Shown: positions 32,696 through 53,591, counted from the first letter of the stretch. The stretch: 64,000 nt of DNA from Oligoflexales bacterium (GCA_965215515.1 OZ244057.1:32001-96000); one strand, 5' to 3'. A program made the numbers and translations. Notes: generated by a model not told the origin, from the sequence alone.

Positions 32696-32716
32696 CAATT
32701 GCTGCGGGGCTAAATC

Positions 32717-33235
32717 TTGAGTAGGAGAGGTAGAAAAAGTCGTACCACCCCTGATATTCCAGACGTTGAACTGAATATCATGCCGTTCATCGACATTTTC
32801 TCGCTGCTGAACACGTTCCTGTTGTTCACTGCGACATTCGTCTCGATCGGTCTGTTGCGGGTACAGGTGCCGTTTCTTTCTAACGCCACCCCCGACAAAA
32901 GACCACCGCGCAGCCTCGATATTAATGTAGACTTGAGCCGCGACCAGATCGTCTTGCGCACCGAGTATACGACCGCGCCGACCGACAAGGCCAGCAGCAG
33001 CTTCTCGTCGTCACCGGAGGGTATCGCGGCGTTTCATCGCGCCCTGGTAGACTTAAAACATAGAAACCCTAAAGACGACAAGGTAACGCTGTATAGCGAT
33101 GAGGATGTCACCTATCGCAAACTGGTAGAGGTACTCGATGCCATCAAGATAGATGACTCGATCGACACCAGCGATGGTATCACCGACAACAACAAGCTAT
33201 ACCCCAAAGTCGTAATGGGAAGTGTCTTACTCTAA
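32717..33235 (+). CDS. aglQ: ExbD/TolR-family subunit (AglQ-like)
   Basis: ELNIMPFIDIFSLLNTFLL with the conserved Asp. Confidence 0.7.
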   Translation: MSRRGRKSRTTPDIPDVELNIMPFIDIFSLLNTFLLFTATFVSIGLLRVQVPFLSNATPDKRPPRSLDINVDLSRDQIVLRTEYTTAPTDKASSSFSSSPEGIAAFHRALVDLKHRNPKDDKVTLYSDEDVTYRKLVEVLDAIKIDDSIDTSDGITDNNKLYPKVVMGSVLL

Positions 33236-33253
33236 CTGTGATGGTGGCTTTAC

Positions 33254-33748
33254 ATGGCAGTATCAGGTGGTGCAACCAGCGAAACCATAGCGCTACCCAT
33301 TACCCCGATGCTGGATATTTTCAGTATTCTGGTAACCTTCTTGTTGATGAGCTATTCGAGCGATCCTATCAGCCACGATCCTAACCCCGCCCTCGAACTG
33401 CCCGACTCGCAGACCACCGTCTCGCTCGATGAGATTCCTGCGGTGATAGTTTCCAAAAACGAAATTTTAGTCAACGACAAAAAAGTCGTAACAGTTATCG
33501 GCGGCACAGTTGATAAACTCCACACAACGCAGGGAGCAATCTATCCGTTATTTCAAGAGCTCGTCAAGCTAAATACCACCAACAAAAACTATGCAGATGC
33601 CTCCTCGCAGAGCAAAGATAAAGTATCGACGCTCACCCTAGAGATGGATAAGAACCATCGTTTTGAATTAATGAAAATGATAATGCTGTCGGCACAACAG
33701 GCTAAGTTTATTACCTTCAAGCTCGTTGTTTCTAAAGAGAAAAGCTAA
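33254..33748 (+). CDS. aglS: ExbD/TolR-family subunit (AglS-like)
   Basis: ITPMLDIFSILVTFLLMSYS..LELP. Confidence 0.7.
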   Translation: MAVSGGATSETIALPITPMLDIFSILVTFLLMSYSSDPISHDPNPALELPDSQTTVSLDEIPAVIVSKNEILVNDKKVVTVIGGTVDKLHTTQGAIYPLFQELVKLNTTNKNYADASSQSKDKVSTLTLEMDKNHRFELMKMIMLSAQQAKFITFKLVVSKEKS

Positions 33749-34443
33749 TGAAAAAAAAAACATGCTATCGAGGGCTTCTGCTCTGTGTGGGCTTTGCCTT
33801 TTGCGCTACAGAGGGGATGAGTGCGGGCCACGAAGAATACCAAATCAACGTTATCAGACCGAAGTTTTTCGTCAAAAAATCACGCACGGAGCTAGGCGCA
33901 GACATCGCGGCGGTAATCAATCAAACTTTTACCTACACTTACCTGCTGTCGGGAGCGATTGTCTACCACCTGACCGATTCGTGGGGTATAGGAGCTACGG
34001 GAGCGTATGGTCTGACCGTTGATAAGCAGGACAGGGATACATTAAAGGAGACGTTCGGTATCACTGTTGACATATTTACTACCGAATGGGTTGCGGAGGC
34101 TTCGTTATTGTGGACTCCTGTGTATGGCAAGTATCAGCTAACGAGCGGGCGGTTGGTCTATTTTGACACCTACATTTCCGCGGGTTTTGGGATGATGGGC
34201 ATTCTGGTGCAAGGCAAAGAAAGAGGGGAGATGGTGGGTAACCAGCACAACTGTTATTCTCCTGTAATAGGGGCAGGGCAGCGGTTTTACCTCAGCAAAA
34301 AAACGAGTTTACGTTGGCAAGTTCGCAACTACATTATCCAGTATGATGGCAAAGCTTGTGCACCTGCAGAATCCACCAACAAAGAGGGCCATAGTTTATT
34401 TCACACGATCGTTACTCAGGTGGGCATTTCTTATTTTATATAG
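33748..34443 (+). CDS. Outer-membrane beta-barrel protein (GltA/B/H-like)
   Basis: Signal peptide, WTPVYGKY, GAGQRFY and terminal GISYFI aromatic strand. Confidence 0.75.
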   Translation: MKKKTCYRGLLLCVGFAFCATEGMSAGHEEYQINVIRPKFFVKKSRTELGADIAAVINQTFTYTYLLSGAIVYHLTDSWGIGATGAYGLTVDKQDRDTLKETFGITVDIFTTEWVAEASLLWTPVYGKYQLTSGRLVYFDTYISAGFGMMGILVQGKERGEMVGNQHNCYSPVIGAGQRFYLSKKTSLRWQVRNYIIQYDGKACAPAESTNKEGHSLFHTIVTQVGISYFI

Positions 34444-34449
34444 GTAAGT

Positions 34450-35943
34450 ATGTTACGCACACTAGTTTTATTTTTGGCAATTTTCAGTTCTTCTGTGTTG
34501 TATGGTAATTATCGTGCCGCGCAGCGTGATTTTGTCAAAGGCAACTACCGCAAGGCCGCGGCACGGTTTTTTCAGGTCATGAATTATCCGAAGGCCAGAG
34601 GTGACAGAGTAAAATCCGAATGGGGGCTAGCACGTAGTTTACAAAAACTTGGCTTTTACTACTCTGCCTCCAAGTACTACAGTGTGATTGTGCGGAGGGG
34701 GGTAGTCAAGCAGAATATCTTTTTTCGCAAAGCTTTTGAACAGTTGGGGGAGATAAATGCAACGATCAATCTCGGTCAGTCACATATTGTGCAGTTGTTA
34801 AAAACACGTGTCACTCCTTCTCGTATTCCTGGTGCGGCGCGTGGCTTTTACTTTCATTATCAAGGCATAGAGGCCTTCTATGACAAGGACTATGACAGAG
34901 CAAGGTCGGCGTTTCGTAAAGTTCCAGCGGGTAGTTCATATTATACCAAGTCACTTTTTTATCTCGGTATTCTCGCTAACATGGATAAACTTTACGGGCG
35001 GGCGATTTCTTATTTTATGAAAGTAAAATCAAATGCGGATACTGAATGGCAACAAGAAATTGCTAATCTCAACATCGCACGGGTGCACTATGAGGCCAAG
35101 CGCTATCGGCAAGCGTTACGTTTTTACGCCGAGATTCCCCGCGCCTCAGACAATTGGTTACAGGCTTTGTTTGAGGGTGCTTGGGCTTTTTTTTTGATGA
35201 AGAAATACAACAACACGTTGGGTAATATTCATACGTTTCACTCGCCGTTTTTTATCAATCGTTTTTATCCAGAGACTTATGTGTTGCAAGCAATTACGTT
35301 TTTGAGTTTGTGTCGCTATGATAACGTGAAACTATCTATTCAGAAATTCAAAAAGCGCTACACCCCTGTGTTCAAGGATTTGCGCAAGCTCATTAACCGC
35401 TATCGGGGTGATTATAGCAAGTTTTTTATGTTGGTGAAAAAGTATCGCAAGGGTTCGTTGAGTAGCTACAGGTATGCACATGCTATTCTCGATTCGTTAT
35501 CGCGACGTGATGTCTACAAAGAGACTTTGACGACGGTGCGTTTTGCGACCAGAGAAATTGATCGTCTAGAAGATGCTAGTCGTATGTGGTTGGTGTCGGG
35601 CTTGATCGACGAACTGAAGTCTTTCTTGCTTAAAAAGCGTTCGGTAGCGATGAACAATGCAGGTGTTAAGCTGATAAGAGGTGCGCAGGAAGCAGTTGAG
35701 TATCTGACTGAGCTGTATAACCAAACGCGCTTCATCAAAGCGGAGCTCTTGCTCGGTAAGGTCGATAAGCTACGCTCGTTGTTGCGCGTCACTGCGGCCG
35801 AAAAGAAAAAAATACGCTTTATCGGTGGCATGCAAGAGATTACGATGAAGTCCGATTTAGAGTTCTGGCCGTTTGAAGACGAATATTGGGAAGACGAGCT
35901 CGGTGGTTATGTTTACGATATAGTGAGCAGTTGCAAAAAATGA
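34450..35943 (+). CDS. TPR protein, GltC-like
   Basis: ALFEGAWAFF..GNIHTFHSPFF..YPE and C-terminal FWPFEDEYWEDELGGY..C signature. Confidence 0.75.
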   Translation: MLRTLVLFLAIFSSSVLYGNYRAAQRDFVKGNYRKAAARFFQVMNYPKARGDRVKSEWGLARSLQKLGFYYSASKYYSVIVRRGVVKQNIFFRKAFEQLGEINATINLGQSHIVQLLKTRVTPSRIPGAARGFYFHYQGIEAFYDKDYDRARSAFRKVPAGSSYYTKSLFYLGILANMDKLYGRAISYFMKVKSNADTEWQQEIANLNIARVHYEAKRYRQALRFYAEIPRASDNWLQALFEGAWAFFLMKKYNNTLGNIHTFHSPFFINRFYPETYVLQAITFLSLCRYDNVKLSIQKFKKRYTPVFKDLRKLINRYRGDYSKFFMLVKKYRKGSLSSYRYAHAILDSLSRRDVYKETLTTVRFATREIDRLEDASRMWLVSGLIDELKSFLLKKRSVAMNNAGVKLIRGAQEAVEYLTELYNQTRFIKAELLLGKVDKLRSLLRVTAAEKKKIRFIGGMQEITMKSDLEFWPFEDEYWEDELGGYVYDIVSSCKK

Positions 35944-38900
35944 AATTTTTACACCCGAAAAATTTTCTCTGTGCCAGTCTTTTGCTGGCAATTGTGGGCA
36001 GTGCGTCACCTCTTTGGGCAAGAGAAAAAACCATCATCGACATTGTGCTTGACGAGAAAAAAGCTAGCAAACGTAAGACGTTGCAGAAACGACGGGCGGT
36101 AATGCGCTCAGAGATTTATTTTTCTGCGGTGGAGAAAAAACTTATCAAAGGGATCAACCGCACCATCAAGTATTTGAACAGCACCTTGCGTAGTTTACCG
36201 CCTAAATCTTCGGCACGGCATGGTATTTATGAGAAGTTGATGAACCTCTATGTCGAACAAGCTTCGTACATTTCCAGTACTGAGTATCGCAGATTCGATC
36301 AGCGTTGGAAAAAATGGGCGGTGCGGCGACGCGGGCCTGAACCACGGCTTAACGACTCTAAATCACGCCGCATTTGGCAAAAAGTGGCAGATATATCGGG
36401 TCGAGCTTTGCGGGAATTCCCTAAATCAAAGCGCGGCGATGCCTTGTTGTTCAGTCGTGCCATTGCTTTCATGTTTCTCAATCGGCAAGCACAAGCCTCA
36501 GCAACGTTTGAAAAAATTATCAAAGAGTATTCTAACTCCAATTTTGCCGGAGATTCTTACTTTGCGTTGGGTGATTATTATTTCGATCGTGCGGAATTTG
36601 CGATAGCACTCAAGTATTACGATTCCGCCACCAAATACCAACGTTCCAAGCGTTATGGATGGTCATTGTTCAAAAAAGCTTGGTGCTACTACAATACTGG
36701 AAAGTATCGTAACGCGCTGGCAACGTGGAAGAAAACAGTACAGTATTCACGCCGTGAAACTAACAAGAACACTTTACGGTTACGGGAAGAAGCATTGCGG
36801 GACATGATCTATGCTTTTGCAGAATTGAACATGCTCGATCAGGCGATGACTTATTATCGCATCAATGGGACGAAAGAAAATGTCAGTGAAACTATTATGA
36901 CATTTGCTTCTATTTCAATCTCGCAGGGTAAATTTCGGGAGGCGATCAGAGCCTATCGCAAGTTTCTAGTCACCACACCGCTGAACCCGAAAGCAGCGGA
37001 AGTCAGACGTGACTTGATTGGCCTCTATTACGAGACAGGCAACAAAAAATCCATGTGGCGGGAACTTGAGCAGATGCCACGTAAATACCACAAAGGCAGT
37101 GCCTGGGCGCGCCGCAATGCTCGTGACAAGAGATTGGTGGTAGAGGCACAAAAGATAGCAAAAGAACGGGTGCTGTATTATGCCAAACTCGCCCACGTCA
37201 CTGCACAAAAGCGTAAAAATGACAAAGCGTTATTGGCGGAAGCGGTACGTGGGTATCGCATTTATCTGCGTAACTATGCCACAACCCCAGAGGCCTTAGA
37301 GGTAAGGTTTTTATTGGGTGATGTTTTTTATTTGCAGAAAAAATATCAAGATTCAGCCAAATCCTACCGACAGGTTGTCCTGTTGCCTCCGCAACGGGCG
37401 GTGATAGTCAACAAGGCTAAAGGCTCACGCAAAAACATTCATGCCCAATCAGCGCGCTATATGCTAGAGGCACATTTTCTTGATTTTAAGCCAGAGTTTA
37501 CAAGAATTTTGAAATTGAAACCTAGACCAGGTCGGCCGCCGCGACCGCTCAGTGCTAAAGCACGTAGCTTTATCAAGGCGTGTCAGCTTTACCTCAAGTG
37601 GTATGGTAAGGACAAGAAAAAGAAAAAAGAATGTGATGTGCACATTGCCGAAGTTTACTACCGCCTCAATCACAAAAACGAATCCAAAAAATATCTGCTT
37701 GCTTTAGCGCTGGCATATCCTGGCACTAAGGAGGGCGAGAGTGCAGTCGATAACCTAATTCCTTTTTACAAAAATGACAAGCTGGCATTGGTCGGTCTTT
37801 TGAAAAAATTCATGGCCATTCCCGCTTATGGGAAAGGGAAGATGGGAAAGAAGCTGAACAAGCTTTATTGGGGGATTAAAGTTGAAGAGGTGGGGACTCT
37901 GCGCGGTACATCGCAAAAGGCAAGAAGTTATGAGAAGTTAGTGCAGCAACGGCCTGGCATCGAAGATGCTGATAAGCTGTTGTTCAATGCGGCGGTGAGT
38001 TATATCAGTGCGGGTGACTACAATTCCGCGGTACGGGTGTACAGTAAGTTGATTAAAAATTACCCGCGGTCGGTGCATGTTACTGAATCGATTCTGAAGC
38101 TTGCTAAGATCTATGAGCGCAACATGCAGTTCAAGGCCGCGGCGGGTTTTTATTTGCAGTATGCTGGTCGCAGTAAGCCAGGCAAAGCGCGCACTACGGC
38201 CCTGACCCGTGCGTGTGAGTTGAAAATTATTGCTTACGATCGTACTTTGCTCGCCACTTGTGCGCAGTTGGCAAAGGTTGATGTCAAAAATTACAAAATA
38301 ATTATGCAGCGTCTCATCAAAACTCTGTCGTTAGAGAGGAATTATACGACCCTAACTTCTTTGGTACGAAATTATTACTTGGGCAAAGTACCGCTGACTC
38401 CCAATGAAGAGGTGACTGCCTTGTATTATCTGCATCGTGCGACGAAGGGGCGCGGCCCGTACGGGGGGAAGATTGTCAAGACTTTTCGCCGTAGTGGCAG
38501 GGCGGTCTCAGGGGAAGCACTGAAACATGTCGGAGAAGTGGTGTTCACCAGTGTCAATGGAGAGTTAGCGCGTTTTCAGAAGTTAAAATTGCGTGGCGGC
38601 ACGGTCAGCGCCATGCAGAGTACGATCAAGAACAAATCAGGTGCGTTGAGTAGGCTTGAGGCACAGTATGATAGGGTTGTAGCCACGCGGGATTCGTATT
38701 GGGGGGTTGCTGCTCTGCATCAAAAAGGCGTGGCTTATAGCAGTTTTGCCCGCTTGTTAGAAAATCCACCACCGATCAAGGGGGCGAAGCTCGATGATGT
38801 TAAGAAACAGCTACAACCGCAGGCAAGAGCATTGCGTGCCAAAGCGATGGAGTATTTTACTTCCGCACAAGATGTGGCACGACGGTTTCAAATTTTGAAC

Positions 38901-39032
38901 CCGTGGGTCGCGAGGGTAAACTCACAGGTAGGTATGTTGTCGGGGCGTAGCCGTAATTTTAGGGAATGGACGGTTGAACCAGATTTTATCGCTTATGAGG
39001 TGAGTGGGGCGGTGCAAGGGCAGATAAGATGA
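35940..39032 (+). CDS. Large TPR protein, GltD/AgmU-like
   Basis: ALGDYYFD..YGWSLFKKAWCYYN..LREEALRD; many TPRs; ATGA overlap with the previous gene. Confidence 0.75.
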   Translation: MKFLHPKNFLCASLLLAIVGSASPLWAREKTIIDIVLDEKKASKRKTLQKRRAVMRSEIYFSAVEKKLIKGINRTIKYLNSTLRSLPPKSSARHGIYEKLMNLYVEQASYISSTEYRRFDQRWKKWAVRRRGPEPRLNDSKSRRIWQKVADISGRALREFPKSKRGDALLFSRAIAFMFLNRQAQASATFEKIIKEYSNSNFAGDSYFALGDYYFDRAEFAIALKYYDSATKYQRSKRYGWSLFKKAWCYYNTGKYRNALATWKKTVQYSRRETNKNTLRLREEALRDMIYAFAELNMLDQAMTYYRINGTKENVSETIMTFASISISQGKFREAIRAYRKFLVTTPLNPKAAEVRRDLIGLYYETGNKKSMWRELEQMPRKYHKGSAWARRNARDKRLVVEAQKIAKERVLYYAKLAHVTAQKRKNDKALLAEAVRGYRIYLRNYATTPEALEVRFLLGDVFYLQKKYQDSAKSYRQVVLLPPQRAVIVNKAKGSRKNIHAQSARYMLEAHFLDFKPEFTRILKLKPRPGRPPRPLSAKARSFIKACQLYLKWYGKDKKKKKECDVHIAEVYYRLNHKNESKKYLLALALAYPGTKEGESAVDNLIPFYKNDKLALVGLLKKFMAIPAYGKGKMGKKLNKLYWGIKVEEVGTLRGTSQKARSYEKLVQQRPGIEDADKLLFNAAVSYISAGDYNSAVRVYSKLIKNYPRSVHVTESILKLAKIYERNMQFKAAAGFYLQYAGRSKPGKARTTALTRACELKIIAYDRTLLATCAQLAKVDVKNYKIIMQRLIKTLSLERNYTTLTSLVRNYYLGKVPLTPNEEVTALYYLHRATKGRGPYGGKIVKTFRRSGRAVSGEALKHVGEVVFTSVNGELARFQKLKLRGGTVSAMQSTIKNKSGALSRLEAQYDRVVATRDSYWGVAALHQKGVAYSSFARLLENPPPIKGAKLDDVKKQLQPQARALRAKAMEYFTSAQDVARRFQILNPWVARVNSQVGMLSGRSRNFREWTVEPDFIAYEVSGAVQGQIR

Positions 39033-40015
39033 AGATCGTTTTAGTTTTGCTGGTGGTTTTAGGCACTGCCTGTGCCAGTACTTCAGGCAGTAAGAGGAGC
39101 GGGGTACGCAGCGATGACAATATCGCAGAGGATCTCGACGAAGGTTTTGATAGTAACAACACGAGCATCCCTTCAGGCCCGACGTTGATGTTGAGTTTGG
39201 GCAAGAACAGCTATACCCAGCCGCGTTTGTCGATGCAAAAAATCAACGAGCGGATCGATGCGTTGGCTAGCAAGCAGCGGCCGCGCCAGGTGGATCTGGA
39301 GAATTTGATTATGCTGCAGGGCTTGGCGCGGCGACCTTTTGCTGAAATTTGGGACAATGCCCAGAAACTCAGCCGCACGCTTAAAAGTGACAAGGGTCTC
39401 TCTGAAATGTTGCAGCTCAATATTGGTATTGCGGCGTTGCGGGCGCGCAAGTATGCCATCGCTGATTATTTTCTTACTCCCTTGAGTACAGGGGCGCGGT
39501 TGGGACGCATTAAGTCTGGTGCGAACAATGCCATTGGGGTAATGTATCTGTTAGAGCAAAATTACCAGGAGGCATCGTTAGCTTTCAAGCGGGCGTTATC
39601 GGCAACGTCTGCCTATCGGCCTGCGGCCTTCAATCTCGGTATGTTACAGCTGCGTTTCGGTAATTTTTCTTTAGCGCGGCGCACGTTGGGTGATATTCCC
39701 CCTGATTGGTTTATCAATGCTTCGATGCTGATTATCGAGCGGCATCTTGGCAATATCGCGCGTGCCAATGGTTTGTGTAAAAAAGTTTTACAGCAGAGAC
39801 CTAACCACAAAATGTCTAAGCTTAATTGTGCGATAATTGAATTTGAAGAAAACAAAAATTACAAGAAGGCTCGGAAATTTTTACAAGAGGCTGCTAAAAT
39901 AAGTGGGGGGGGGGAATTCTGGGAGAATGTGATTTACAAGTTATTGGAAGAGATAGATACGAAGGAGTTTAACAAAAAGCTACAGGCCGCCGCGGAATCG
40001 CCGCACGGTCACTGA
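39029..40015 (+). CDS. TPR lipoprotein, GltE/AglT-like
   Basis: Lipobox GTAC; TPRs (ANNAIGV, AAFNLGML); position after the gltD-like gene. Confidence 0.65.
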   Translation: MKIVLVLLVVLGTACASTSGSKRSGVRSDDNIAEDLDEGFDSNNTSIPSGPTLMLSLGKNSYTQPRLSMQKINERIDALASKQRPRQVDLENLIMLQGLARRPFAEIWDNAQKLSRTLKSDKGLSEMLQLNIGIAALRARKYAIADYFLTPLSTGARLGRIKSGANNAIGVMYLLEQNYQEASLAFKRALSATSAYRPAAFNLGMLQLRFGNFSLARRTLGDIPPDWFINASMLIIERHLGNIARANGLCKKVLQQRPNHKMSKLNCAIIEFEENKNYKKARKFLQEAAKISGGGEFWENVIYKLLEEIDTKEFNKKLQAAAESPHGH

Positions 40016-40033
40016 TGGTTTTGTGAGGTTGTT

Positions 40034-42007
40034 TTGGGTTTTGCCTTAAAGCTCGATGCTCCTGGTCAACCGCTGAAGTCGGTGCCCTTGACGGGCGACA
40101 AGATTTTGCTGGGATCGTTGTTATCCAATCATGTTGTGCTACAAGGCAAGGGCATCGATCCTATCCATGCTTTGATCGAGGCGCACGCAGACGGTGGTGA
40201 TGAGCGTTGGATCATTACTGATCTTGGTTCAGAGGGGGGAGTTAAACTCAATGGGAGTGCGATTGAGGTCGAGGCGGAGATCAATCCCTCTGATGTGATT
40301 GAGTTAGGTGATGCGAAGTTAGTCGTTGAGGCGGTGCGTGTTCCAGATTACAAAGGGGCGGTGGTGGCTGGCACAGGAGTGAGGTTAGAAGCGGCGGGAG
40401 GGGGCGGTGCACTACCACCTGTACCACCTGCGCCAGTGCCACAGCAGGAACAGCCAGCACCTAGCCATGACAGGAGGGCATCGTTATTTAACGTGCGTGA
40501 GGCGCGGCCACGGGGTGAAGTGCTGGAGGTGGTTGCGTATTGGGACAAGACGATCATCGAGGCCGAGTATTTTCATCGCGATTTCAAAGAGTTCAACAAG
40601 GTAACGATCGGCACGACCGATGTTAGTCATTTTATCGCCGCGAATCGAGATGCGCAGCTGATCAAGCGTCATGTGTTGGCGGAGTTTGGTCGTGGCGGGG
40701 GCTATCGTCTCAACCTTAGCGACGGTATGACCGCGAGGGTGCGGAAGGGCGGCAAGGTCAGCAAAATCTCAGGGGCACGTAGCATTTCGTTGGGCAAGCA
40801 TGACTTGGTGCAGGTGGCTTTCGGCGCGGTCAGGTATTTTTTAATTTTTGTCAAACCGCCTAATGTTATTTTACCACCTGCGCGCAACAGCGATCCGTTT
40901 TTCAGTGCACTATTGATGTTGGCGATGTTGTTTTATTTTATCTGCATCCCTACATTGTGGTATGCTAGCTCGAAGATTACCAGAGATCGTAAGGACGACA
41001 TTTGGGCGGTGGTTTATAAGCCAGTCAAAAAGCCCAAGCCGATCAAGGTAGTGAAGGTCAAAAAGAAAATTGAAAAAGTAAGAGACAAAAAACCGCTGAA
41101 AAGGCCTCCTCCTCCCAAGAAACCCAAGCCTGTCAAGCCAGTTAAACCGATACAGAAACCGAAACCTAAAAAAACTGTTAAGCTTGCCAAGCGTCCACCG
41201 ATTGCGAAGTCTTTGGGGGTAAAAAAGCGTGGCAAGGTGGCTGCGAAGCCGCGGGCGCGGCCGAAACCCGCGGGAGGCAGATCGGGCATCAAGTCGACGG
41301 GTATCGGCAGTCGTCGGCCTGGTGGGGGACGTAAGGGGAAGAGCAATTCTTCGTTGACGGGTGCTAAGGGAGTAAAGAACAAGAAAGCTTCAGGCGTTAA
41401 TCTTTCCAAGCTCGGTTTGGATGTCGGTCAGGTGTTGTCGAAGCGTGGAGCGGGGGCGCAGTATACGACTTTCAAGAGTTCCGCAGGCGGTGCAGGTGGG
41501 GGGCGTGGTGCGCGCCTCAACACTACGGGTCTGGGTGGCTTGGGTGATGCGCGTACTTTGAGTTTGGCGGGCAGCAAGGGTGCGTTGAACAAGTTCGGCA
41601 CGGGGCAGGGTGTGCTTGATCGTGGCGGGCGTGGCGGGGGCTTGGGCAAAGGTTTCGGGCGTGGAGCGAGCAAGGTGACGGTCAACATTCCGCCAGGCGA
41701 TCCTGTTGTATCGGGTGGTTTGACCGCGGGTGAGATTTCCAGTGTTATCAGGAAGAACCTCAACCAGATTCGTCACTGTTATGAACAGTATTTGCAACGC
41801 AGCCCTGGCAAATCTGGCAAAGTGGCGGCGAAGTTTGCTATCGGGAAGAGTGGTCGCACCACGTCGGTCAGTATCAGGAGATCTAACATCTCCGATCGTT
41901 CCTTCCGTAATTGTATCACCAGCAGGATTAAAACCTGGAAGTTCCCGCGCCCTCGCGGCGGTTCGAGCGTGCAGGTCAACTATCCGTTTGTCTTCAATCC
42001 GCTTTAG
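40034..42007 (+). CDS. GltG/PglI-like protein (FHA, TM, K/P-rich and G-rich linker, TonB-C/AgmX domain)
   Basis: HALIE..DLGSEGGVKLNG FHA domain; single TM; IRHCYE..WKFPRPRGG..VNYPFVF. Confidence 0.85.
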   Translation: MGFALKLDAPGQPLKSVPLTGDKILLGSLLSNHVVLQGKGIDPIHALIEAHADGGDERWIITDLGSEGGVKLNGSAIEVEAEINPSDVIELGDAKLVVEAVRVPDYKGAVVAGTGVRLEAAGGGGALPPVPPAPVPQQEQPAPSHDRRASLFNVREARPRGEVLEVVAYWDKTIIEAEYFHRDFKEFNKVTIGTTDVSHFIAANRDAQLIKRHVLAEFGRGGGYRLNLSDGMTARVRKGGKVSKISGARSISLGKHDLVQVAFGAVRYFLIFVKPPNVILPPARNSDPFFSALLMLAMLFYFICIPTLWYASSKITRDRKDDIWAVVYKPVKKPKPIKVVKVKKKIEKVRDKKPLKRPPPPKKPKPVKPVKPIQKPKPKKTVKLAKRPPIAKSLGVKKRGKVAAKPRARPKPAGGRSGIKSTGIGSRRPGGGRKGKSNSSLTGAKGVKNKKASGVNLSKLGLDVGQVLSKRGAGAQYTTFKSSAGGAGGGRGARLNTTGLGGLGDARTLSLAGSKGALNKFGTGQGVLDRGGRGGGLGKGFGRGASKVTVNIPPGDPVVSGGLTAGEISSVIRKNLNQIRHCYEQYLQRSPGKSGKVAAKFAIGKSGRTTSVSIRRSNISDRSFRNCITSRIKTWKFPRPRGGSSVQVNYPFVFNPL

Positions 42008-42106
42008 CAAGTCCTCATTCGTACGGCCAGCAGATTTTACTGCATTGCCAATCATGGTGTTTTATGCGATGACGGGGCACTTGCTGTCGAGAAGATGCCC
42101 CTACTG

Positions 42107-42129
42107 CGCTTTTTACGGGGGCATCTACA
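42107..42129 (-). repeat. Solo copy of the IS3-family terminal inverted repeat
   Basis: The reverse complement TGTAGATGCCCCCGTAAAAAGCG is identical to 2690-2712 (23/23). Confidence 0.9.
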
Positions 42130-42229
42130 CCGCTGATGGTCGTCAACCTCCTTGCGGAAGGCAATACCACCATCGACTAACGCTCGCAAAATTTCCACCC
42201 CAACCCTCTGAACCCACGGAACTCAGGTG

Positions 42230-43846
42230 TTAAGGAGAGTTGGGGTTGAAAGTCACTCGCACCTCGCAGTTGCACTGTCCAGCGCTCCAATAGCACCCAC
42301 TCAGATTAACATCTACAGAGGTATTATCAGGTTGCCTAAACCCACGATCATGTTGGCAGCCCCAACTTGGACTAGGCTCATTGTTTATGCACGAACTTTC
42401 TGCATCCACAGAATCATCCACATAGTGACCATAACAGTCAGTATCAGGCGTTGTGGAGTCACCATCATCATCGACACAGTTGCTACTGTGAGGATGAGTC
42501 TCGGCTTCACAAGGATACTTTTTCTTGCAGCATAAAAAGCAGTCCGCGGGCTCCCCCTGCGGCCCTGGCGGCGCTAAGTCTGGGTCTAGCACCAACCGCC
42601 CCCGCACCCTCACCAACCCTCGCCCTCGATCCCCCCGCGGGCCTGGTGGCCCTCGTTGTGTGCCATCCGAGCCTGGAGGCAGCAATCCTTCCCGCACGCC
42701 GCTTTTGAAATGCCCACCACCAGCCCTGAAGTCACTGATAGTTGGGAAGCGCTCTATCTCGCAGCTGAAGGTATCGTACTCCACGAGGTCGGGCTCATCG
42801 GGACTCCACCAGGTGGGAGGATCGGGCAGAGCAGTGGTAGCACCTGGATATGATCTGTCTATGTACCTCCCCCCAGGGCTGGCAAGGCGAAGCAGTGTGT
42901 AGGTTTGTGCAAGGGCAGTGCCACTACCCTGTTGCGCCGCGACGCGCCGCGCACGGCCAGTGGCGGGAGTCCCGTCTGTGCCCACGCAGCGCGTTTCTTC
43001 ATCTGCCACTATCTGCTCGACGTAGCCGCTTTGGGAGCAATCGATGGCTTTTACCGTGCGCTTCTCCGTAGGAGTAAGGTCGGTGCTGCAGATCGGATCG
43101 CCCGTGACGAAGGTATCAGTGGCGTCGAGGGAAAAACCAAGCAGAGCTCCCTTAGCGCAATCCTTCGCGGTCACCAGCGGTACTTGACTACACTTGGCGT
43201 AGTTGGAGTTGAAATCATATTGGATGATCGCCCCCGCGCCCTCGTAGAGCTTGACCCCTGCACTGTCAAGCTGAGTCAGATGAGGGTTACTGGGGAGCGT
43301 GGGGTTCGTGCAATCGGTGGTGTTGTCGCTGATCGCCCCTGGGGTGTTGTGATGCAAAAAAACGATCTCCTCACGTTCAGCCAACCTGATCTTGACGGTA
43401 GGATGCTGCGCAGGGATAAATTCCACCCTCACCTCGACCGCGATCAAACCCTCCTCCTCTACGTAACTGTCTGCCTGCAGGATCTCACCGCTAGGCAAAT
43501 TTCTTCTCAGGGCAGTCACCCTCCACCACCTCCCTGTTGGCGACCCAGTGTAACCGTAGTCGTAAAGATCATCGGCAAGAAGAAGGGCATTGCCGTTGGC
43601 GGTGGGGATAACGGCAAGACCAGCTCGCGAGCAAACGATGTGCGGACAAGTGCCGCTCCTTGTCGCATCCCAACCAGCAATGACGATGCTCTTGTAGTGT
43701 TTGAGCAACTCCTCGCGCTGTTCCCGCAACCGTACCGCCGCCATCGTCTGCGACTGACTGCCGAGCAGACGCGCTACCGCCACCGCCACAATACCCGCCA
43801 GTGCCACCGCGACCATCACCGACATCAATGTCATGCCATTGCGCAT
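42230..43846 (-). CDS. Large type IV pilin-like protein with Cys repeats and collagen-like segment (no. 3)
   Basis: MRNG|MTLMSVMVAVALAGIVAVAV after RBS GGAGAGG; GPPGPRGDRGRG..PPGPQGEP; Cys-rich tail. Confidence 0.75.
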   Translation of the reverse strand: MRNGMTLMSVMVAVALAGIVAVAVARLLGSQSQTMAAVRLREQREELLKHYKSIVIAGWDATRSGTCPHIVCSRAGLAVIPTANGNALLLADDLYDYGYTGSPTGRWWRVTALRRNLPSGEILQADSYVEEEGLIAVEVRVEFIPAQHPTVKIRLAEREEIVFLHHNTPGAISDNTTDCTNPTLPSNPHLTQLDSAGVKLYEGAGAIIQYDFNSNYAKCSQVPLVTAKDCAKGALLGFSLDATDTFVTGDPICSTDLTPTEKRTVKAIDCSQSGYVEQIVADEETRCVGTDGTPATGRARRVAAQQGSGTALAQTYTLLRLASPGGRYIDRSYPGATTALPDPPTWWSPDEPDLVEYDTFSCEIERFPTISDFRAGGGHFKSGVREGLLPPGSDGTQRGPPGPRGDRGRGLVRVRGRLVLDPDLAPPGPQGEPADCFLCCKKKYPCEAETHPHSSNCVDDDGDSTTPDTDCYGHYVDDSVDAESSCINNEPSPSWGCQHDRGFRQPDNTSVDVNLSGCYWSAGQCNCEVRVTFNPNSP

Positions 43847-43856
43847 ACCCTCTCCG

Positions 43857-45233
43857 TCATCGTAGCGGGCAAGAGCGGTTGTCATCCTCAAACCATTGCC
43901 AATGAGTATCTTCATTACCGAAATATCCACCATTACCACACCCTTCATCAGGGTAAGCAGGGATGGGAGGTGTTGCAAGAGGTCGGCCACTGAAAGATTC
44001 TCCCCTTGCCCCTCGCTCACCACAGGTGGGTCTGCCCTTCCGACCCCTCGGCCCTTGCCCACTGACGGTAAAGTCCGTGAGGGTACCCATAGAGCCAGGA
44101 ACATTTTTATATTCCTCATCACCAAAGTATGGAAAACCTGCCCTCGTGCCACACAACACTCTGCCCCTACTATCTATCCCTCGCACGGCGGCTGGTGCTC
44201 TAGTCGTCGGCCTTGGCACGCTTGGCGGCCACGGCCCTGGAGTCGTCGGCGTACAAGCATATATGGGCTGATTAAGAGCACAATTACTGTAATGAACCAG
44301 CTTGCCACTTCCCCCGAGTGCACACTCCACGTTAGCATTTTCGTTGCTAACGCCCGCCCCGATTTTCCAGATAACACTGCGATCTGAGACGCAACTGGTA
44401 GGAGTGACCGCTACCCTGCCGCTGTCGCTGCTGCAGGCGGTGGTAGATTCCACCACCCCTCCCTTCAGCGCATTTTTGCGCGGACAGTTGCCGAGACCAT
44501 TACGGGTGGTGTCGACAAGATCGGCGGAGCCGCAAGATACGTCGCGGTTAGATGAGTGCAAGGCGATCGCGGTCACCGCCTTGTCGCCACAACCATTGCC
44601 AGGCACATAGTTGGTGCTGCGTCGTAAGCGCAATTCGCGCGGATAGTTCAGCTGCGGCAGATGACGTTCGTTGCCCGCCCCGCGCCACCTGCTGGCAACA
44701 AAACTCTGCGTGAAAACGAGATCGACCGCGTTGTTTCCCCTGTGTTCCCATTCGACCTCAACTTTCCACCAACCATCGGTATCTTCTCTCGTCGCCGAAT
44801 CCTTCAGATGCATGCCGCCTGACTTGATAAGGACAATGTTCGACGCATCGAAGTTGCTAAAGTTTAGTGCACCCGCACGGGTAAGGGCATTACCACCAAA
44901 CTCACAATCAGGCCCCATCAACCGCATATTACGAGAACCGCTGGGACAACTGCTGCCCTTGCCGAAAATACAACGTCGCAAGGGGAGGTTGGCACTGGTC
45001 ACGGTAGGTCCGCCAGCATCGTAGAGAGTGCACCACCACACCTTGTCGTCATGCAGCAGATTGCTGTAGAACTTGAAAATCGCATCGCCCTTGTCGGCCA
45101 ACTCCATCACCCGCAAGGCACTCATCTGATTGCCCACCAGACGCACCCCCGCCACCGCCAGCACACCTGACAACCCTACCGCCACCATGAGGGAGGCCAG
45201 TGTCAGACCGAGTTTTCGCTCCCGAGCTCTCAT
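43857..45233 (-). CDS. Large type IV pilin-like protein with Cys repeats and collagen-like segment (no. 2)
   Basis: MRARERKLG|LTLASLMVAVGLSGVLAV; GQGPRGRKGRPTCGERGARGE; ATGA overlap with the upstream gene. Confidence 0.75.
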   Translation of the reverse strand: MRARERKLGLTLASLMVAVGLSGVLAVAGVRLVGNQMSALRVMELADKGDAIFKFYSNLLHDDKVWWCTLYDAGGPTVTSANLPLRRCIFGKGSSCPSGSRNMRLMGPDCEFGGNALTRAGALNFSNFDASNIVLIKSGGMHLKDSATREDTDGWWKVEVEWEHRGNNAVDLVFTQSFVASRWRGAGNERHLPQLNYPRELRLRRSTNYVPGNGCGDKAVTAIALHSSNRDVSCGSADLVDTTRNGLGNCPRKNALKGGVVESTTACSSDSGRVAVTPTSCVSDRSVIWKIGAGVSNENANVECALGGSGKLVHYSNCALNQPIYACTPTTPGPWPPSVPRPTTRAPAAVRGIDSRGRVLCGTRAGFPYFGDEEYKNVPGSMGTLTDFTVSGQGPRGRKGRPTCGERGARGESFSGRPLATPPIPAYPDEGCGNGGYFGNEDTHWQWFEDDNRSCPLR

Positions 45234-46594
45234 GGTGGTGGATCGCATAGGTTACCAGACTTATCCCACCCAAGAGGACATCTGAGATTGTCGCACTTCT
45301 CATAGAACTTACTACCATCACAGAAAGACCGAGCCTGCGCTCCCTGCGGGCCAGGGTAGGTATCCCCCTGTTCTCCTCGAGGGCCTCGGAAGCCTCGAGG
45401 CCCTGCGCCTGTCGGTGTCGGCACACATGCTGTTACCAGACCGGTGCTCCCAAACCCTCTGATAGCCTCTCCTGGGTCGCAGTATTCTGGCTCCACCCCG
45501 CCTGTTCCCCCTCCCATCACCGCAGTCGAACACGTGAAAGTGCCCGTATCGCTAATTCTAACAATCCCGTAACGGTTCTCACCGCTACAGTGCCTGGCGG
45601 AAAATCCCGCCTCGACCTCGTTCACCAAAATATTGGGGTGGCTACACTGACTGATGCCTGTCCACGGATCGAAAAAGGCGATCGCGGTCGTGCCGCCCCC
45701 ACTCGTCGCGGGGCAACTTCCCTTGGTAGCGCCAGCTCCACATCTTAATCCCCGCCCCGCCGTGCCAGGAAACGACCTCCCCTTGATCCCAGCAAATGCT
45801 GCACCGCGCACTCTGCCGGTCTTGGTGAAAGGGTTATCGCTGTCACCGCTCAGGTCGTAACAGGGGGGGACGACCAGCGGGCCTTTGGAGGAGCACTCTA
45901 CCAAGCCTGTATAGGAGTCGAAGTTGACCACCGCGCTATCGCCCGCATAGGCGAGCACTCCCTTGCCCGTGCCACGATAATGACCCGTAAGCCTCCCCTC
46001 CGAACAGTCTTTGCCGACCGTGCGGTTCAAGTAGACGGCATGCTCCTTATCGGCCAGGTCAAAATTCACCCCGAGATCGTTCTTAATCTCGGTGCGGTTG
46101 GCGGTAAGAGTAAGTTTCACCTCCACATGTCTGTTGCTGGTGAGTCCCCTCCACTCGGCTTCGAGGCAAAAGTGTTGCGTGGTGTCGCACGTGCTCGTCG
46201 CACCATCGATAGGCAGGTTGTTGTAATCCTGCATCCGCAACCCGAGACCAGAACCTCCGATCAGCTCATCGGGATCGGGGGCTGGCGTTGGAAGGAAATC
46301 CTCCTGACAATCTTCTCCGTGCTTGTAAACCACCAGAGGGCCGCTGCGGGGCGATCCTGTGCGCAAGTAATTCCCTAGCGCACTATTTCCCCAAACAGTA
46401 CACTCCCACGTATTGCGGTTACTGATCACACTGGCGTAATAGGTTATCACCTGCTCGCGGAAAGATACCAGGTCACCGATCAAGGTGATGCTGGCACGGT
46501 TGCGCATCTGCTGGGTGTAGACCAACGCGAAGATGCCGAGCACAACCGCACCTGCCATCACCGTGACGATGCCGAAACCTCCCTCGTCTCTCAC
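45230..46594 (-). CDS. Large type IV pilin-like protein with Cys repeats and collagen-like segment (no. 1)
   Basis: MRDEGG|FGIVTVMAGAVVLGIFALV; GAGPRGFRGPRGEQGDTYPGPQGAQ. Confidence 0.75.
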   Translation of the reverse strand: MRDEGGFGIVTVMAGAVVLGIFALVYTQQMRNRASITLIGDLVSFREQVITYYASVISNRNTWECTVWGNSALGNYLRTGSPRSGPLVVYKHGEDCQEDFLPTPAPDPDELIGGSGLGLRMQDYNNLPIDGATSTCDTTQHFCLEAEWRGLTSNRHVEVKLTLTANRTEIKNDLGVNFDLADKEHAVYLNRTVGKDCSEGRLTGHYRGTGKGVLAYAGDSAVVNFDSYTGLVECSSKGPLVVPPCYDLSGDSDNPFTKTGRVRGAAFAGIKGRSFPGTAGRGLRCGAGATKGSCPATSGGGTTAIAFFDPWTGISQCSHPNILVNEVEAGFSARHCSGENRYGIVRISDTGTFTCSTAVMGGGTGGVEPEYCDPGEAIRGFGSTGLVTACVPTPTGAGPRGFRGPRGEQGDTYPGPQGAQARSFCDGSKFYEKCDNLRCPLGWDKSGNLCDPPP

Positions 46595-46742
46595 CCTCTG
46601 ACCACGCTTGCGATAGAAAACTCTACAACCATTAGAGCATGTCTACGGATGTGAGTGCAACTTTTTCTGTTGTATGTTAGTTTTCCTCCCCTACAGAAAA
46701 GCGTAGGCAAACTCGCTTCTCCCGCCACACTGTGTTAGCTTA

Positions 46743-47270
46743 ATGAGCGTCTGTGTTGTGCTGGGAGGGCTGGTGCTGAGATTCGGAGGTGCAGCGGTGT
46801 TCGCGGTCACCGCGGCGGTGTTGACCTGGTATTTTATTCCCTCCGATCTCAAAAAAGTCGTCTCCAACCCACAGCCCGCACGCCCCCAGACGGTGAGCTG
46901 GCATAGCTTACAACTGCTCGATTACAAAACAGGCACCGCACCCCCGCCTGTCCAAGCACTGCACGGGAAACGAGTCAGAGTCCCTGGTTTCGTCGTGCCC
47001 CTGTTGGACAACATCACCGTGTTGAAAGAATTTCTGCTCGTTCCCGACCCCCAAGCCTGTATCCACGTGCCACCGCCCCCACCGAATCTGATCGTCTACG
47101 TCAAACTACGCAAAGCAATATCCTACCGCAACGCCTTCAATCCCGCCTGGGTCGACGGCATTATCTACATTCTCGACACCCAGAGCCAGTTCGGCACCGC
47201 ATCATGGCGCATGGATGGGATAAAAATTTTCCCCTATACGACAGAAGACAACGCCCCCCCACCACCATAG
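46743..47270 (+). CDS. DUF3299-family protein
   Basis: LHGKRVRVPGFVVPL..EFLLVP..ACIHVPPPPPNLIVYV. Confidence 0.85.
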   Translation: MSVCVVLGGLVLRFGGAAVFAVTAAVLTWYFIPSDLKKVVSNPQPARPQTVSWHSLQLLDYKTGTAPPPVQALHGKRVRVPGFVVPLLDNITVLKEFLLVPDPQACIHVPPPPPNLIVYVKLRKAISYRNAFNPAWVDGIIYILDTQSQFGTASWRMDGIKIFPYTTEDNAPPPP

Positions 47271-51547: not shown

Positions 51548-52177
51548 GTGCCTCTGGTCTTGACCGCAGACGATTCCGCCGCCATTCAGCGCGTCGTGCA
51601 GGTGTCGCTGTACCCCTATGCCATCGATGTCATCAGTGCCGATAACCTAACCGCGGCACTGGACAAAACCGCTGCGCAGCAGGTCGATCTGATCATCGCC
51701 GATGCGGAACTGCGTGGTACGACTGCCTTGCCCGATCTGCAGCGCCTGACTACCGACGGCAAGATACCGCTCATTCTTTTGCTGAGTTCTTACAGCAGAG
51801 TTGACAAAGCCACCTTGACTGAATTGGGTTTTCAACAAATTCTGCCCAAGCCTTTCGATAGCCGCGAGCTGTTGCAGTTGGTGGCTTTCAATTTACAGAT
51901 GGATCTCGACGAGGGGTGTAATGCAGATTGGCAACCGTTCCCTGTGCGCGCGGCGAAGGAGAATGCTCCCCCGACTACACCGTCACCACCTGTGTTACCA
52001 GGAGTGGCTGAGGATGCGGCGCACGGTGATGGTGTCGATCATAACTTCGCCACGTTGGTCAAGAAAGCGGTGTTCGAGTACTGTCAGAACAACTTTCCTC
52101 GTATTGCCAGAGAGATGGTGCTCGCCGAGATTCGCCGTCTGCAAAAGGAAAAGTCCGACCCCATGAGCAGCAATTGA
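51548..52177 (+). CDS. Response regulator with receiver, Pro-rich linker and C-terminal helix (RomR-like)
   Basis: LTADDSAAIQRVV..LIIAD..KPF receiver; PPTTPSPP linker; FPRIAREMVLAEIRRL tail. Confidence 0.65.
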   Translation: MPLVLTADDSAAIQRVVQVSLYPYAIDVISADNLTAALDKTAAQQVDLIIADAELRGTTALPDLQRLTTDGKIPLILLLSSYSRVDKATLTELGFQQILPKPFDSRELLQLVAFNLQMDLDEGCNADWQPFPVRAAKENAPPTTPSPPVLPGVAEDAAHGDGVDHNFATLVKKAVFEYCQNNFPRIAREMVLAEIRRLQKEKSDPMSSN

Positions 52178-52184
52178 GCTGATC

Positions 52185-52652
52185 GTGTCACGACACGGGA
52201 CGAGTTTGATGGGGGTGATGGTGGCGGTAGCACTGTCTGGTATCATCGCGGTCGCGGTGAGCAACATGTTGACCAATCAGGCGAAGATCATAAAACAACT
52301 GGAAGTACGAGCACAGCGCGCCCAATTGATCAGGCACTATCGCGATGCGGTCAATGCGGGTTTGCTCAATACCCTTATCGGACGCTGTGGAAAGGGTAAT
52401 TTTTGTGGTGCAGATGGCAGTCTGCTGATTCCTCACACAGGTCTGTACTTGAGCGACGATGTCTACGACTACGGTAACATCGATCGCGAGGGCAAGTGGT
52501 GGAAGGTTACCGCACACCGTGCTCCCTCCAGCAAATATGCAGGACAGCCCGCTATCGAATTGACAGTCGCATTTCTGAATAACCAGCACCCCGTGGTCAA
52601 TATGGCTCTCGAAACCGTAACCGAGGTAATCCTCATTCCCTCCACTCCCTAG
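52185..52652 (+). CDS. Short type IV pilin-like protein, paralogue of the N-domain of 42230..43846
   Basis: MSRHG|TSLMGVMVAVALSGIIAV; LSDDVYDYG..GKWWKVTA..QHP motifs shared with the large pilin. Confidence 0.75.
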   Translation: MSRHGTSLMGVMVAVALSGIIAVAVSNMLTNQAKIIKQLEVRAQRAQLIRHYRDAVNAGLLNTLIGRCGKGNFCGADGSLLIPHTGLYLSDDVYDYGNIDREGKWWKVTAHRAPSSKYAGQPAIELTVAFLNNQHPVVNMALETVTEVILIPSTP

Positions 52653-52712: not shown

Positions 52713-53591
52713 TTGACTATCGGGGATGGCATACTGTTAAAGCGAGCTGGCGGTGAGATACGCACCGACCTTACCGCAGCGATGCGTCTTAAGAACACCG
52801 ACATGGAGATCATGATAACCCTCATTCTGGAGCACAAGAGTTATCGTGATCCTGAAGTAATCCTGCAGACGATGGAGTATTATCTGAGCGCTCGTCGTGA
52901 GCAGCGAAAGCGCAGATCAGGGAAAAAGGGGGCGGCTCGCAACTTGATTATCCCTGTGGTTTTAATCTGCTGCAAGGATAAGGACTTCGAGCCACCTAAA
53001 GATGATCTATCGCTTGAGTTTGGTGATGAAGAAGTCCCGCCTGTCTTGGAGGAGTTTAGGGCTTTGTTTCAGAGAATGCCTTGCCTGACGGTGAATTTGC
53101 GCAAGTTACAGCTCGATAATTTTTGGGATGAGGTGGGGGGGCGAGGAAGCGGCGAGAGTTGTCGCGCCGCGGTAACAGCAGTGCAGGGTATGGCAGAGGT
53201 GTGGGATGCGAACGATGACACGGTAGCTGCGTTGCTGACCAAAGGTCGCTTGCTTTCCCCTGAGGATGGGGCTTTTATCCTAGAAAACCTAAGCGTATAC
53301 TACGTAAGTGCCGACAATGCGGTAGGAGAGGGTGATTTCGATCGTGTTGATCGGGAAAGGTGGCCAGACTTGGCACAGGAAGAGAGGTTAGAAGCTATGC
53401 TAGAGACACAGAGCGATAGGGCTAAACAGCTCGGCATCGAGCAGGGCAAGCAGCTTGGCATCGAGCAGGGCAAGCTGGATACCGCAAGACATCTCTTGCT
53501 GGAGGGTGTCGATGAGCGGATAATCTGCAAGGCCGCGCAGCTCTCAAAGCAAGAACTGGCTAAGATTAAGCGCGATCTCAATCGGAACTAA
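52713..53591 (+). CDS. Rpn/YhgA-like (Transposase_31) nuclease, apparently 5'-truncated
   Basis: EIRTDL..LILEHKS..QTMEY..IIPVV core; C-terminal GIEQGKQLGIEQGK repeats. Confidence 0.75.
   Translation: MTIGDGILLKRAGGEIRTDLTAAMRLKNTDMEIMITLILEHKSYRDPEVILQTMEYYLSARREQRKRRSGKKGAARNLIIPVVLICCKDKDFEPPKDDLSLEFGDEEVPPVLEEFRALFQRMPCLTVNLRKLQLDNFWDEVGGRGSGESCRAAVTAVQGMAEVWDANDDTVAALLTKGRLLSPEDGAFILENLSVYYVSADNAVGEGDFDRVDRERWPDLAQEERLEAMLETQSDRAKQLGIEQGKQLGIEQGKLDTARHLLLEGVDERIICKAAQLSKQELAKIKRDLNRN
53424..53474 (+). repeat. 24-bp tandem repeat (2 copies) encoding KQLGIEQG
   Basis: aaacagctcggcatcgagcagggc / aagcagcttggcatcgagcagggc. Confidence 0.85.

Follow-up and report, generated by a model that had tools for sequence, protein, structure and literature searches.

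A 64,000-nucleotide stretch of the genome of an uncultured Oligoflexales bacterium (GCA_965215515.1 OZ244057.1:32001-96000; hereafter the window, with positions counted from its first letter) contains three tandem genes, here called A, B and C (42,230 to 46,594), each encoding a large protein with a pilin-like N-terminus that lacks glutamate at mature position +5 (Glu5), short blocks of Gly-X-Y triplets and a Cys-rich tail. The feature is real, conserved and unannotated. We favour the reading, which in our judgement stands evenly balanced between true and false, that A, B and C, perhaps together with a paralogue encoded nearby (D), belong to the modular minor pilins and assemble into a hetero-oligomeric complex that caps or primes a type IV filament. 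The set is best filed with the modular minor pilins and tip complexes rather than as a categorically new system.

The three genes are co-directional on the minus strand in the order A-B-C (Table 1). The stop codon of A and the start codon of B overlap in a shared ATGA at 45233-45230, and the B stop codon TGA (43859-43857) is followed by a 10-nucleotide gap (43847-43856) with GGAGAGGG, a GGAG-type site, and then by the ATG of C at 43846. This layout, from which the initial annotation had started, was found in the DNA exactly as claimed. B may instead start at another in-frame ATG (45248). A, B and C form one translationally coupled operon.

Word-indexed searches found 31 relatives of A, 41 of B and 40 of C besides the window's own proteins, all of them unnamed, and no Pfam domain was detected in the 31 A homologues. 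A HMMER search with the C profile against 1.84 billion representative proteins gave 61 matches at E ≤ 0.001, which comprised family members, short C-like proteins, B members matched via their N-terminus and one junk repeat protein; the last (P0144, 904 amino acids (aa), 11 matched stretches) was discarded as a low-complexity repeat protein unrelated to the family. When 41 genomes of the order were scanned, B was present in the window's genome and in 3/3 other genomes of its Oligoflexales family, and in 0/37 genomes from 15 other families. Two metagenome scans with the B and C profiles returned no locus.

As in tip complexes, the subunits are co-encoded, and the A-B-C order is kept at all loci examined. 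The genes lie on one strand in the window and at three further loci (L030, L031 and L033), and also at L032 with A split into two open reading frames (ORFs); at L034 the A of an A-B-C set is cut by the contig end, and in a second genus (L044) B-C was found with B cut in the same way. There are three operon copies in one related genome (G001) and two in another (G002), and, judging by contigs of matching length, representatives of all three families share at least 13 more contigs, a minimum since the listing is confined to cluster representatives. At none of the loci examined did A, B or a full-length C stand by itself; recurrence as triplets, proposed earlier as a check, was thus borne out, the homologues coming as A-B-C and never singly. 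In the second copy of G002 (L032 6360-7965), A is split into overlapping ORFs of 137 and 456 aa, through either a frameshift or pseudogene formation or an assembly error. In all three G001 copies a small Glu5 pilin gene (169-187 aa) lies convergent just downstream of C (L031 10547-11110, L033 10599-11108, L034 3343-3858, all on the minus strand); neither the window nor G002 has such a gene at this place.

All three proteins start with a class III-type N-terminus (G/FGIVT in A, G/LTLAS in B, G/MTLMS in C, the slash marking the predicted cleavage site), in which a basic leader and Gly are followed by about 21 hydrophobic residues. The mature +5 residue is Thr in A, Ser in B, Ser in C and Gly in D, in place of the Glu5 of type IV pilins. 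These signals and their lack of Glu had been recognised from the DNA, and the alignments add that the +5 position holds a conserved Ser/Thr: Gly(-1) and Ser(+5) are almost invariant in the alignments of B (42 sequences) and C (41 sequences), and the basic leader and conserved Gly(-1) are retained in all three families. A Gly at +14, a typical pilin feature, is present in A, B, C and D. The motifs WWKVE and WWRVT, reported earlier for two of the proteins, are in B and C, respectively.

Pfam and NCBIfam gave no match for A or B, and their T2SSK, T2SSJ, PilW and PilX_N families matched none of A, B and C. C matched the NCBIfam/Pfam prepilin-peptidase-dependent protein family at E 1.7e-4 and 21 bits, against a cut-off of 120. 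At family level, 25/42 B members and 23/41 C members matched Pfam N_methyl at E ≤ 0.1. Profile comparison with hhalign showed that the first 55-75 residues are homologous among the A, B and C families (probabilities 94%, 99% and 98%), and that between A and C the homology spans about 200 columns (97.8%).

An AlphaFold2 model built from the C alignment is confident at residues 11-166, with a helix (7-63) followed by five strands and 10-residue blocks of predicted local distance difference test scores (pLDDT) mostly at 80-96; beyond this N-terminal domain the model is poor (mean pLDDT 64.0). When it was compared with 48,161 solved chains, the top ten matches were all pilins or pseudopilins, at modest Z scores of 4.6-5.7 and each covering residues 1-168. 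EpsI (Z 5.7), GspI (Z 5.6) and XcpV (Z 5.5) came first, only four chains reached Z 5, and PilA5, FimA, a competence pilin, PilV, a Shewanella pilin, the PAO1 pilin and PilX also stood among the ten. The B model (residues 41-210 at pLDDT 73-96) gave XcpV, GspI and EpsI as its sole multi-element matches (Z 4.5-4.1), the remaining rows being single helices. PDB sequence searches by profile gave no match for A and C, and for B only rows at E 0.19-0.67, two of them pilin N-termini. The pilin-like domains of the initial annotation are in keeping with these results, namely a pilin fold in the C model and homologous N-termini throughout the set. As in modular pilins, a pilin module of about 166-210 residues is followed by 250-370 further residues, and no Pfam family matched these extra C-terminal modules.

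The claim that each protein has a Gly-X-Y stretch holds well, as the Gly columns are invariant or almost so across 32, 42 and 41 sequences: G401, G404, G407 and G410 are invariant in A, and G394, G397, G400, G405 and G408 in B and G399, G402, G405, G408 and G428 in C are almost invariant. In each of the three families, 3-5 triplets are usually followed by a break, by 2-4 more triplets and then by a Cys, and the blocks are kept in the second genus. Runs across the families have 3-8 triplets, with 11 in one homologue; the 17-residue insert between the C blocks is specific to this genome's copy. Pro takes 26%, 31% and 45% of the X positions in A, B and C, and Y is mostly Arg, Pro or Lys, as in collagens. 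Such runs are rare: of the 2757 stop-to-stop ORFs in this genome that reach 150 aa, two have at least four Gly-X-Y triplets and at least three Pro, C being one of them.

Recognition of the blocks as collagen is weaker. The Pfam Collagen family (PF01391) did not match the window's A, B or C at E ≤ 1, and at E ≤ 0.1 it matched 10/41 C, 1/42 B and 1/32 A members, the best at 26.9 bits against a cut-off of 27.2. The ESM Atlas gave collagen-type clusters for A 195-454 at 0.80-0.84, which is below the level for more than a lead, and no usable match for C 167-385. The breaks between the blocks measure about 10-13 residues in A, 0-2 in B and 4-5 in C (17 in the window's C). Because the blocks are very short, the PF01391 match is lacking or weak and the breaks are unequal among the chains, one continuous in-register helix is unlikely; a short helix in the first block alone, or two short helices, is possible. 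The first runs of A, B and C from the same operon (4-6, 3-5 and 4-8 triplets) vary too little for a co-variation test. Formation of a triple helix by these blocks is hypothetical.

Cysteines provide a different view of chain association. The window's A, B and C have 18, 16 and 20 Cys, respectively, and a Cys-rich tail is present in all three proteins, as the initial annotation had it; that of C is acidic and 128 aa long, and tails after the last Gly-X-Y run in the C family vary from 5 to 132 residues. Of the ‘Cys-bounded repeats’ also described there, profile self-comparison recovered one weak 24-residue repeat in A (218-241 versus 301-324, E 0.0014, probability 17%), whereas B and C gave none. 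Summed over the mature chains of A, B and C, the Cys count is even in 15/15 complete triplets. Exactly two chains are odd in 10/15 triplets, namely A and C in nine and B and C in one, and a single odd chain or three odd chains never occurred among the 15. The sole B+C triplet is the well-supported sister of an A+C triplet, so that the odd Cys shifted from A to B as C stayed odd. By exact calculation for random pairing of chains, all-even sums have p = 1.3e-4, or 2.4e-3 when collapsed to ten clades, values that overstate independence, given the kinship of the lineages and a tree whose backbone is unresolved. When Cys were split into head and tail, tail sums were even in 13/14 triplets; we rely on whole-chain parity because the head/tail boundary is arbitrary. 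Unpaired Cys are unusual in exported proteins, and the paired odd chains therefore indicate an interchain disulfide. Cys counts of this kind suggest interchain disulfides among the A, B and C chains, and the co-assembly of three chains proposed in the initial annotation gains indirect support from operon coupling and from this parity. A complex prediction with A 360-454, B 345-458 and C 353-538 scored 0.10 and 0.03 against a mark of 0.32, in a run with no controls, and counts neither for nor against association. Elsewhere in the window, a gene at 27202-28968 (minus strand) encodes a thiol:disulfide interchange protein of DsbD type, with domains DsbD_N, DsbD_TM and thioredoxin; the bacterium thus has a system that handles disulfides in the periplasm.

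The genome encodes one Peptidase_A24 prepilin peptidase, eight T2SSE ATPases and three secretins. The search for PilD, PilB and PilC, suggested earlier as a check, thus turned up a single prepilin peptidase and type IV filament machinery that includes a pilB-pilT-pilC cluster. An operon for a type II secretion system (T2SS) is complete (GspD-E-F-G and four pseudopilins including GspK, a T2SSK_1st protein), and because it has its own GspG-K set, this system has no need of A-D. No minor-pilin cluster was found beside pilB-pilT-pilC or beside the small Glu5 pilins, and PilX_N had no match anywhere in the genome. Outside the window, some 13-14 large (576-1191 aa) Glu5-bearing pilin genes are scattered over the 2.18-Mb genome, near 99.4, 240, 417, 1041, 1344, 1491, 1569, 1605, 1864, 1874, 1919 and 1948 kb (L041, L042). 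Their first approximately 50 residues are near-identical and their C-terminal parts differ, with Pfam giving N_methyl alone in the two that were scanned; they could be a variable pilin repertoire.

The paralogue D, overlooked in the initial annotation, matches the profile of the C module at E 5e-33 over profile positions 2-162. It lies 5.6 kb from the operon and directly 3' of a response-regulator gene (51548-52177, plus strand). The pair of response regulator and D also occurs in G002 (L036), and tblastn gave a match at the corresponding position in G001 (L035). When the entire 2.18-Mb genome was searched with the profiles, A, B, C and D were the only matches. Near pilin loci, ORFs of another kind recur (window 52713-53591, plus strand; L030 10816-11830; L031 13783-14826; L039 10257-12633). 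Relatives of the window's copy have a basic start and a D-x-F-F-K-K-x-F-like motif, and the copy itself has no Pfam match; ORFs of this type may resemble Rpn/YhgA-type recombination nucleases.

In the cap or priming complex that we favour, A, B and C would be co-produced from the single translationally coupled operon, their hydrophobic N-terminal helices would insert in the inner membrane, and the single prepilin peptidase would cleave them after the conserved Gly. Once oxidised in the periplasm, the chains would join, probably as 1:1:1 and possibly with D, at the distal tip of a type IV filament, below which Glu5-bearing pilins would polymerise, by analogy with GspK-I-J, FimU-PilVWX and Streptococcus sanguinis PilABC. 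We infer a tip location from these analogues, because Glu5-less chains cannot pair with the N-terminus of a subunit above them. The C-terminal parts would project from the tip, linked in many lineages through interchain disulfides close to the Gly-X-Y blocks, and the variable tails would act as the binding surface, that is, in an adhesive role. Within this reading, each chain would combine a small N-terminal GspI-like pilin module with a large beta module rich in disulfides, a short collagen-like segment that serves as hinge or stalk, and a Cys-rich tail that varies.

Several results weigh against such a complex. The structural matches fall at Z 4.1-5.7, a range in which the comparison tool warns of a common arrangement (caution is advised under Z 8), and Foldseek found no match in the PDB for the B and C models at E ≤ 0.001. 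Because of the modest Z scores and the Foldseek result, the fold claims are graded: on the models, a pilin fold is likely for C and plausible for B, and for A it would follow from homology to C. The match of C to Pfam N_methyl (E 0.0079, 16.2 bits) is under the cut-off of 21.2, and 0/32 A members matched that family at E ≤ 0.1. No pilus machinery genes lie beside the operon at the loci examined, and the flanking genes vary among loci and genomes. PilW had no match in the genome, in a search without a positive control, and PilY1 had none in the genome or in 41 related genomes, which is uninformative as the control matched nowhere. The parity signal comes from relatives, all chains being even in 5/15 triplets including the window's set, and, the lineages being related, independent parity changes may be as few as two. 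Among the tip complexes described in the available parts of PMC9934059, none is Glu5-less throughout: in HIJK only K and in PilABC only PilA lacks the residue. The loss of Glu5 in all members, with Ser/Thr kept instead in A, B and C, is without counterpart in described complexes and is unexplained.

A somewhat unlikely alternative is that the three proteins are independent modular minor pilins on a filament, with the blocks serving as flexible Pro/Gly-rich hinges between body and tail and with no collagen-like trimer. The shortness of the blocks (3-5 triplets, a break and 2-4 more), break lengths that differ among the chains and so speak against one continuous in-register helix, and the poor PF01391 scores, with no family member reaching the cut-off, are all as expected of hinges; yet a mere linker does not need Gly positions that are (almost) invariant at the same architectural place in three families and a second genus, the X and Y composition is collagen-like, and the Cys-parity coupling indicates physical association. 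A bolder form of the favoured complex, a 1:1:1 heterotrimer in which three pilin modules cap a type IV filament and the Gly-X-Y blocks wind into a short disulfide-knotted triple helix that bears a variable recognition tail, we regard as unlikely. It is very unlikely that the operon instead provides three alternative homotrimeric tips, each chain self-trimerising via its own Gly-X-Y block. CofB, described as a trimeric modular minor pilin (PMC8179133), offers a precedent for such tips, but genes that always occur together, in fixed order and translationally coupled, fit a fixed-ratio complex better, and a chain with an odd Cys count would be left with a free thiol on homotrimerising, whereas odd-Cys chains are paired within the operon.

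The remaining alternative dispenses with the filament. The pilin-like N-terminus may be an uncleaved membrane anchor, and the proteins may belong to a structure of the envelope or periplasm that is rich in disulfides and has nothing to do with pili. Glu5 is missing in all of them, A has no N_methyl match, the operon is unlinked to pilus genes, and in the window it adjoins an ExbB/ExbD/TPR/FHA-TonB_C envelope cluster. This adjacency is not kept at other loci, however, and the globular module of C is more than a helix, having a pilin-type fold; moreover, the basic leader and Gly(-1) are conserved in all families, and a small Glu5 pilin gene follows C in the three G001 loci. We consider this alternative decidedly unlikely.

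Tip complexes of three or four minor pilins, and modular pilins, have been described (PMC8179133, PMC9934059), a missing Glu5 is a feature of the cap subunit in GspK, PilX and S. sanguinis PilA (PMC9934059, PMC13759059), and cyanobacteria have several priming sets per genome (PMC13759059). GspK-GspI-GspJ of the T2SS (PDB 3CI0) and FimU-PilV-PilW-PilX are, like A, B and C, tandem-encoded pilin-fold proteins of a capping or priming complex with a Glu5-less cap subunit (PMC9934059, PMC13759059), and the B and C modules are nearest to GspI-type subunits. A, B and C share the missing Glu5 with the GspK/PilX caps; they have neither the GspK alpha-domain or PilX_N signature nor H, I and J partners in a machinery operon. 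Unlike both of these complexes, all three chains here are Glu5-less and carry 250-370 extra residues, 16-20 Cys and Gly-X-Y blocks, and their genes lie outside the machinery operon and match none of the T2SSK, T2SSJ and PilW families.

PilA-PilB-PilC of S. sanguinis is likewise a three-minor-pilin operon with a modelled tip complex, in which adhesive modules are carried by two modular pilins, and PilFind misses one subunit, which lacks Glu5 (PMC9934059, PMC8179133). There is no sequence relation to A, B and C, which have Cys-rich beta modules and collagen-like blocks in contrast to vWA and lectin domains, and which are all modular, all Glu5-less and from a diderm host. CofB/TcpB of type IVb pili similarly have a pilin module followed by beta-rich domains and a trimer predicted at the pilus tip (PMC8179133), but CofB is a homotrimer of one gene product without Gly-X-Y, as opposed to three different chains, and it was not among the listed structural matches of the B and C models.

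Among collagen-like proteins, Scl1/Scl2 and Bucl share Pro- and charge-rich Gly-X-Y sequences, non-collagenous flanks that nucleate trimers and adhesive functions (PMC8968730), and Legionella Lcl reportedly has collagen-like repeats with non-collagenous, adhesive flanks. These have long repeats and are stated to be homotrimers (PMC8968730), whereas here 3-5 triplets are set on pilin-like carriers in three chains. A survey of more than 1,200 modular pilins contains two pilin-collagen architectures of one protein each (PMC8179133, Dataset S1), in which an N-terminal pilin signature precedes collagen repeats. The bare combination of pilin and collagen is therefore catalogued, though uncharacterised. 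Unlike the present set, these are single proteins with canonical IPR012902/IPR001082 signatures and recognised collagen repeats, and neither a triplet operon nor loss of Glu5 is reported for them in the part of the dataset available. A search of full-text literature, with most subscription journals outside its coverage, returned no Glu5-less pilin triplet with collagen-like blocks and no pili in this lineage. The architecture, which the initial annotation did not recognise from a described system, is not entirely without precedent, as modular pilins, minor-pilin tip complexes and two pilin-collagen architectures are on record. Complement C1q offers an analogy only: its A, B and C chains have collagen-like segments and interchain disulfides and form a heterotrimeric stalk with a recognition head, but C1q is eukaryotic, has a long collagen region and contains no pilin module.

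Table 1. Features of the A-B-C operon and of the paralogue D, with positions in the window.
Feature	Positions	Strand	Details and basis
Gene A	45230-46594	-	454 aa, GTG start, stop-free ORF
Gene B	43857-45233	-	458 aa, stop-free ORF
Gene C	42230-43846	-	538 aa, stop-free ORF
Pilin module of C (residues 1-168)	43343-43846	-	helix 7-63 and beta-sheet, likely pilin fold from AlphaFold2 and structural comparison
Gly-X-Y block of A (residues 398-412, 5 triplets)	45359-45403	-	pattern count, alignment
Gly-X-Y blocks of B (residues 394-402 and 405-413, 3+3 triplets, split by Thr-Cys)	43995-44054	-	pattern count, alignment
Gly-X-Y blocks of C (residues 399-410, 4 triplets; GPQGEP 428-433)	42548-42652	-	pattern count, alignment
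Gene D	52185-52652	+	155 aa, stand-alone Glu5-less pilin module (G/TSLMG), paralogous to the N-terminal module of C
Intergenic region between A and the divergent DUF3299 gene	46595-46742		presumed operon promoter region

Two genes flank the operon, one for the FHA/TonB_C protein, convergent to it (40034-42007), and one for a DUF3299 protein, divergent from it (46743-47270); the operon's GC content (0.56-0.58 for A, B and C) is within the range of the window. A promoter scan found no consensus sigma-70 site between A and the DUF3299 gene, and a scan for promoters and terminators gave one promoter-like site within gene A and three terminator-like sites, none of which exceeds the shuffled expectation. 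Where C and the FHA/TonB_C gene converge, a GC-rich inverted repeat (GATGCCCC ... GGGGCATC) at 42040-42150 may act as a terminator in both directions; it was spotted by eye and was absent from the output of the terminator scan. On the plus strand, 32048-42007 contains genes for ExbB/MotA, two ExbD proteins, two unclassified ORFs, tetratricopeptide repeat (TPR) proteins of 1048 and 328 aa and the FHA/TonB_C protein, a cluster that presumably resembles gliding-motility or Tol-like envelope motor clusters. Membership of the operon in this cluster was considered and dropped because the adjacency was not found at other loci.

Minor pilins set the adhesion target of a filament and the start of its assembly, and their fast divergence leaves whole sets unrecognised. 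Sequence searches of Pfam, NCBIfam and the PDB all miss the present set. The set departs from the rule by which the cap subunit alone lacks Glu5, and it has a new type of grafted module, in which Cys-rich beta domains are followed by a mini-collagen block. If the favoured complex is correct, the operon would be a new example of how bacterial tip adhesins are constructed, and a disulfide-linked heterotrimer would provide a compact natural system for the study of chain selection and register in heterotrimeric collagen helices. A collagen heterotrimer, if it forms, would be a bacterial counterpart of the C1q stalk, borne on a pilus, and the first heterotrimeric collagen to occur naturally in a prokaryote. 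The two to three divergent operon copies in relatives and the hypervariable tails suggest a diversification of binding specificity in the Oligoflexales, a little-known and possibly predatory or host-associated group.

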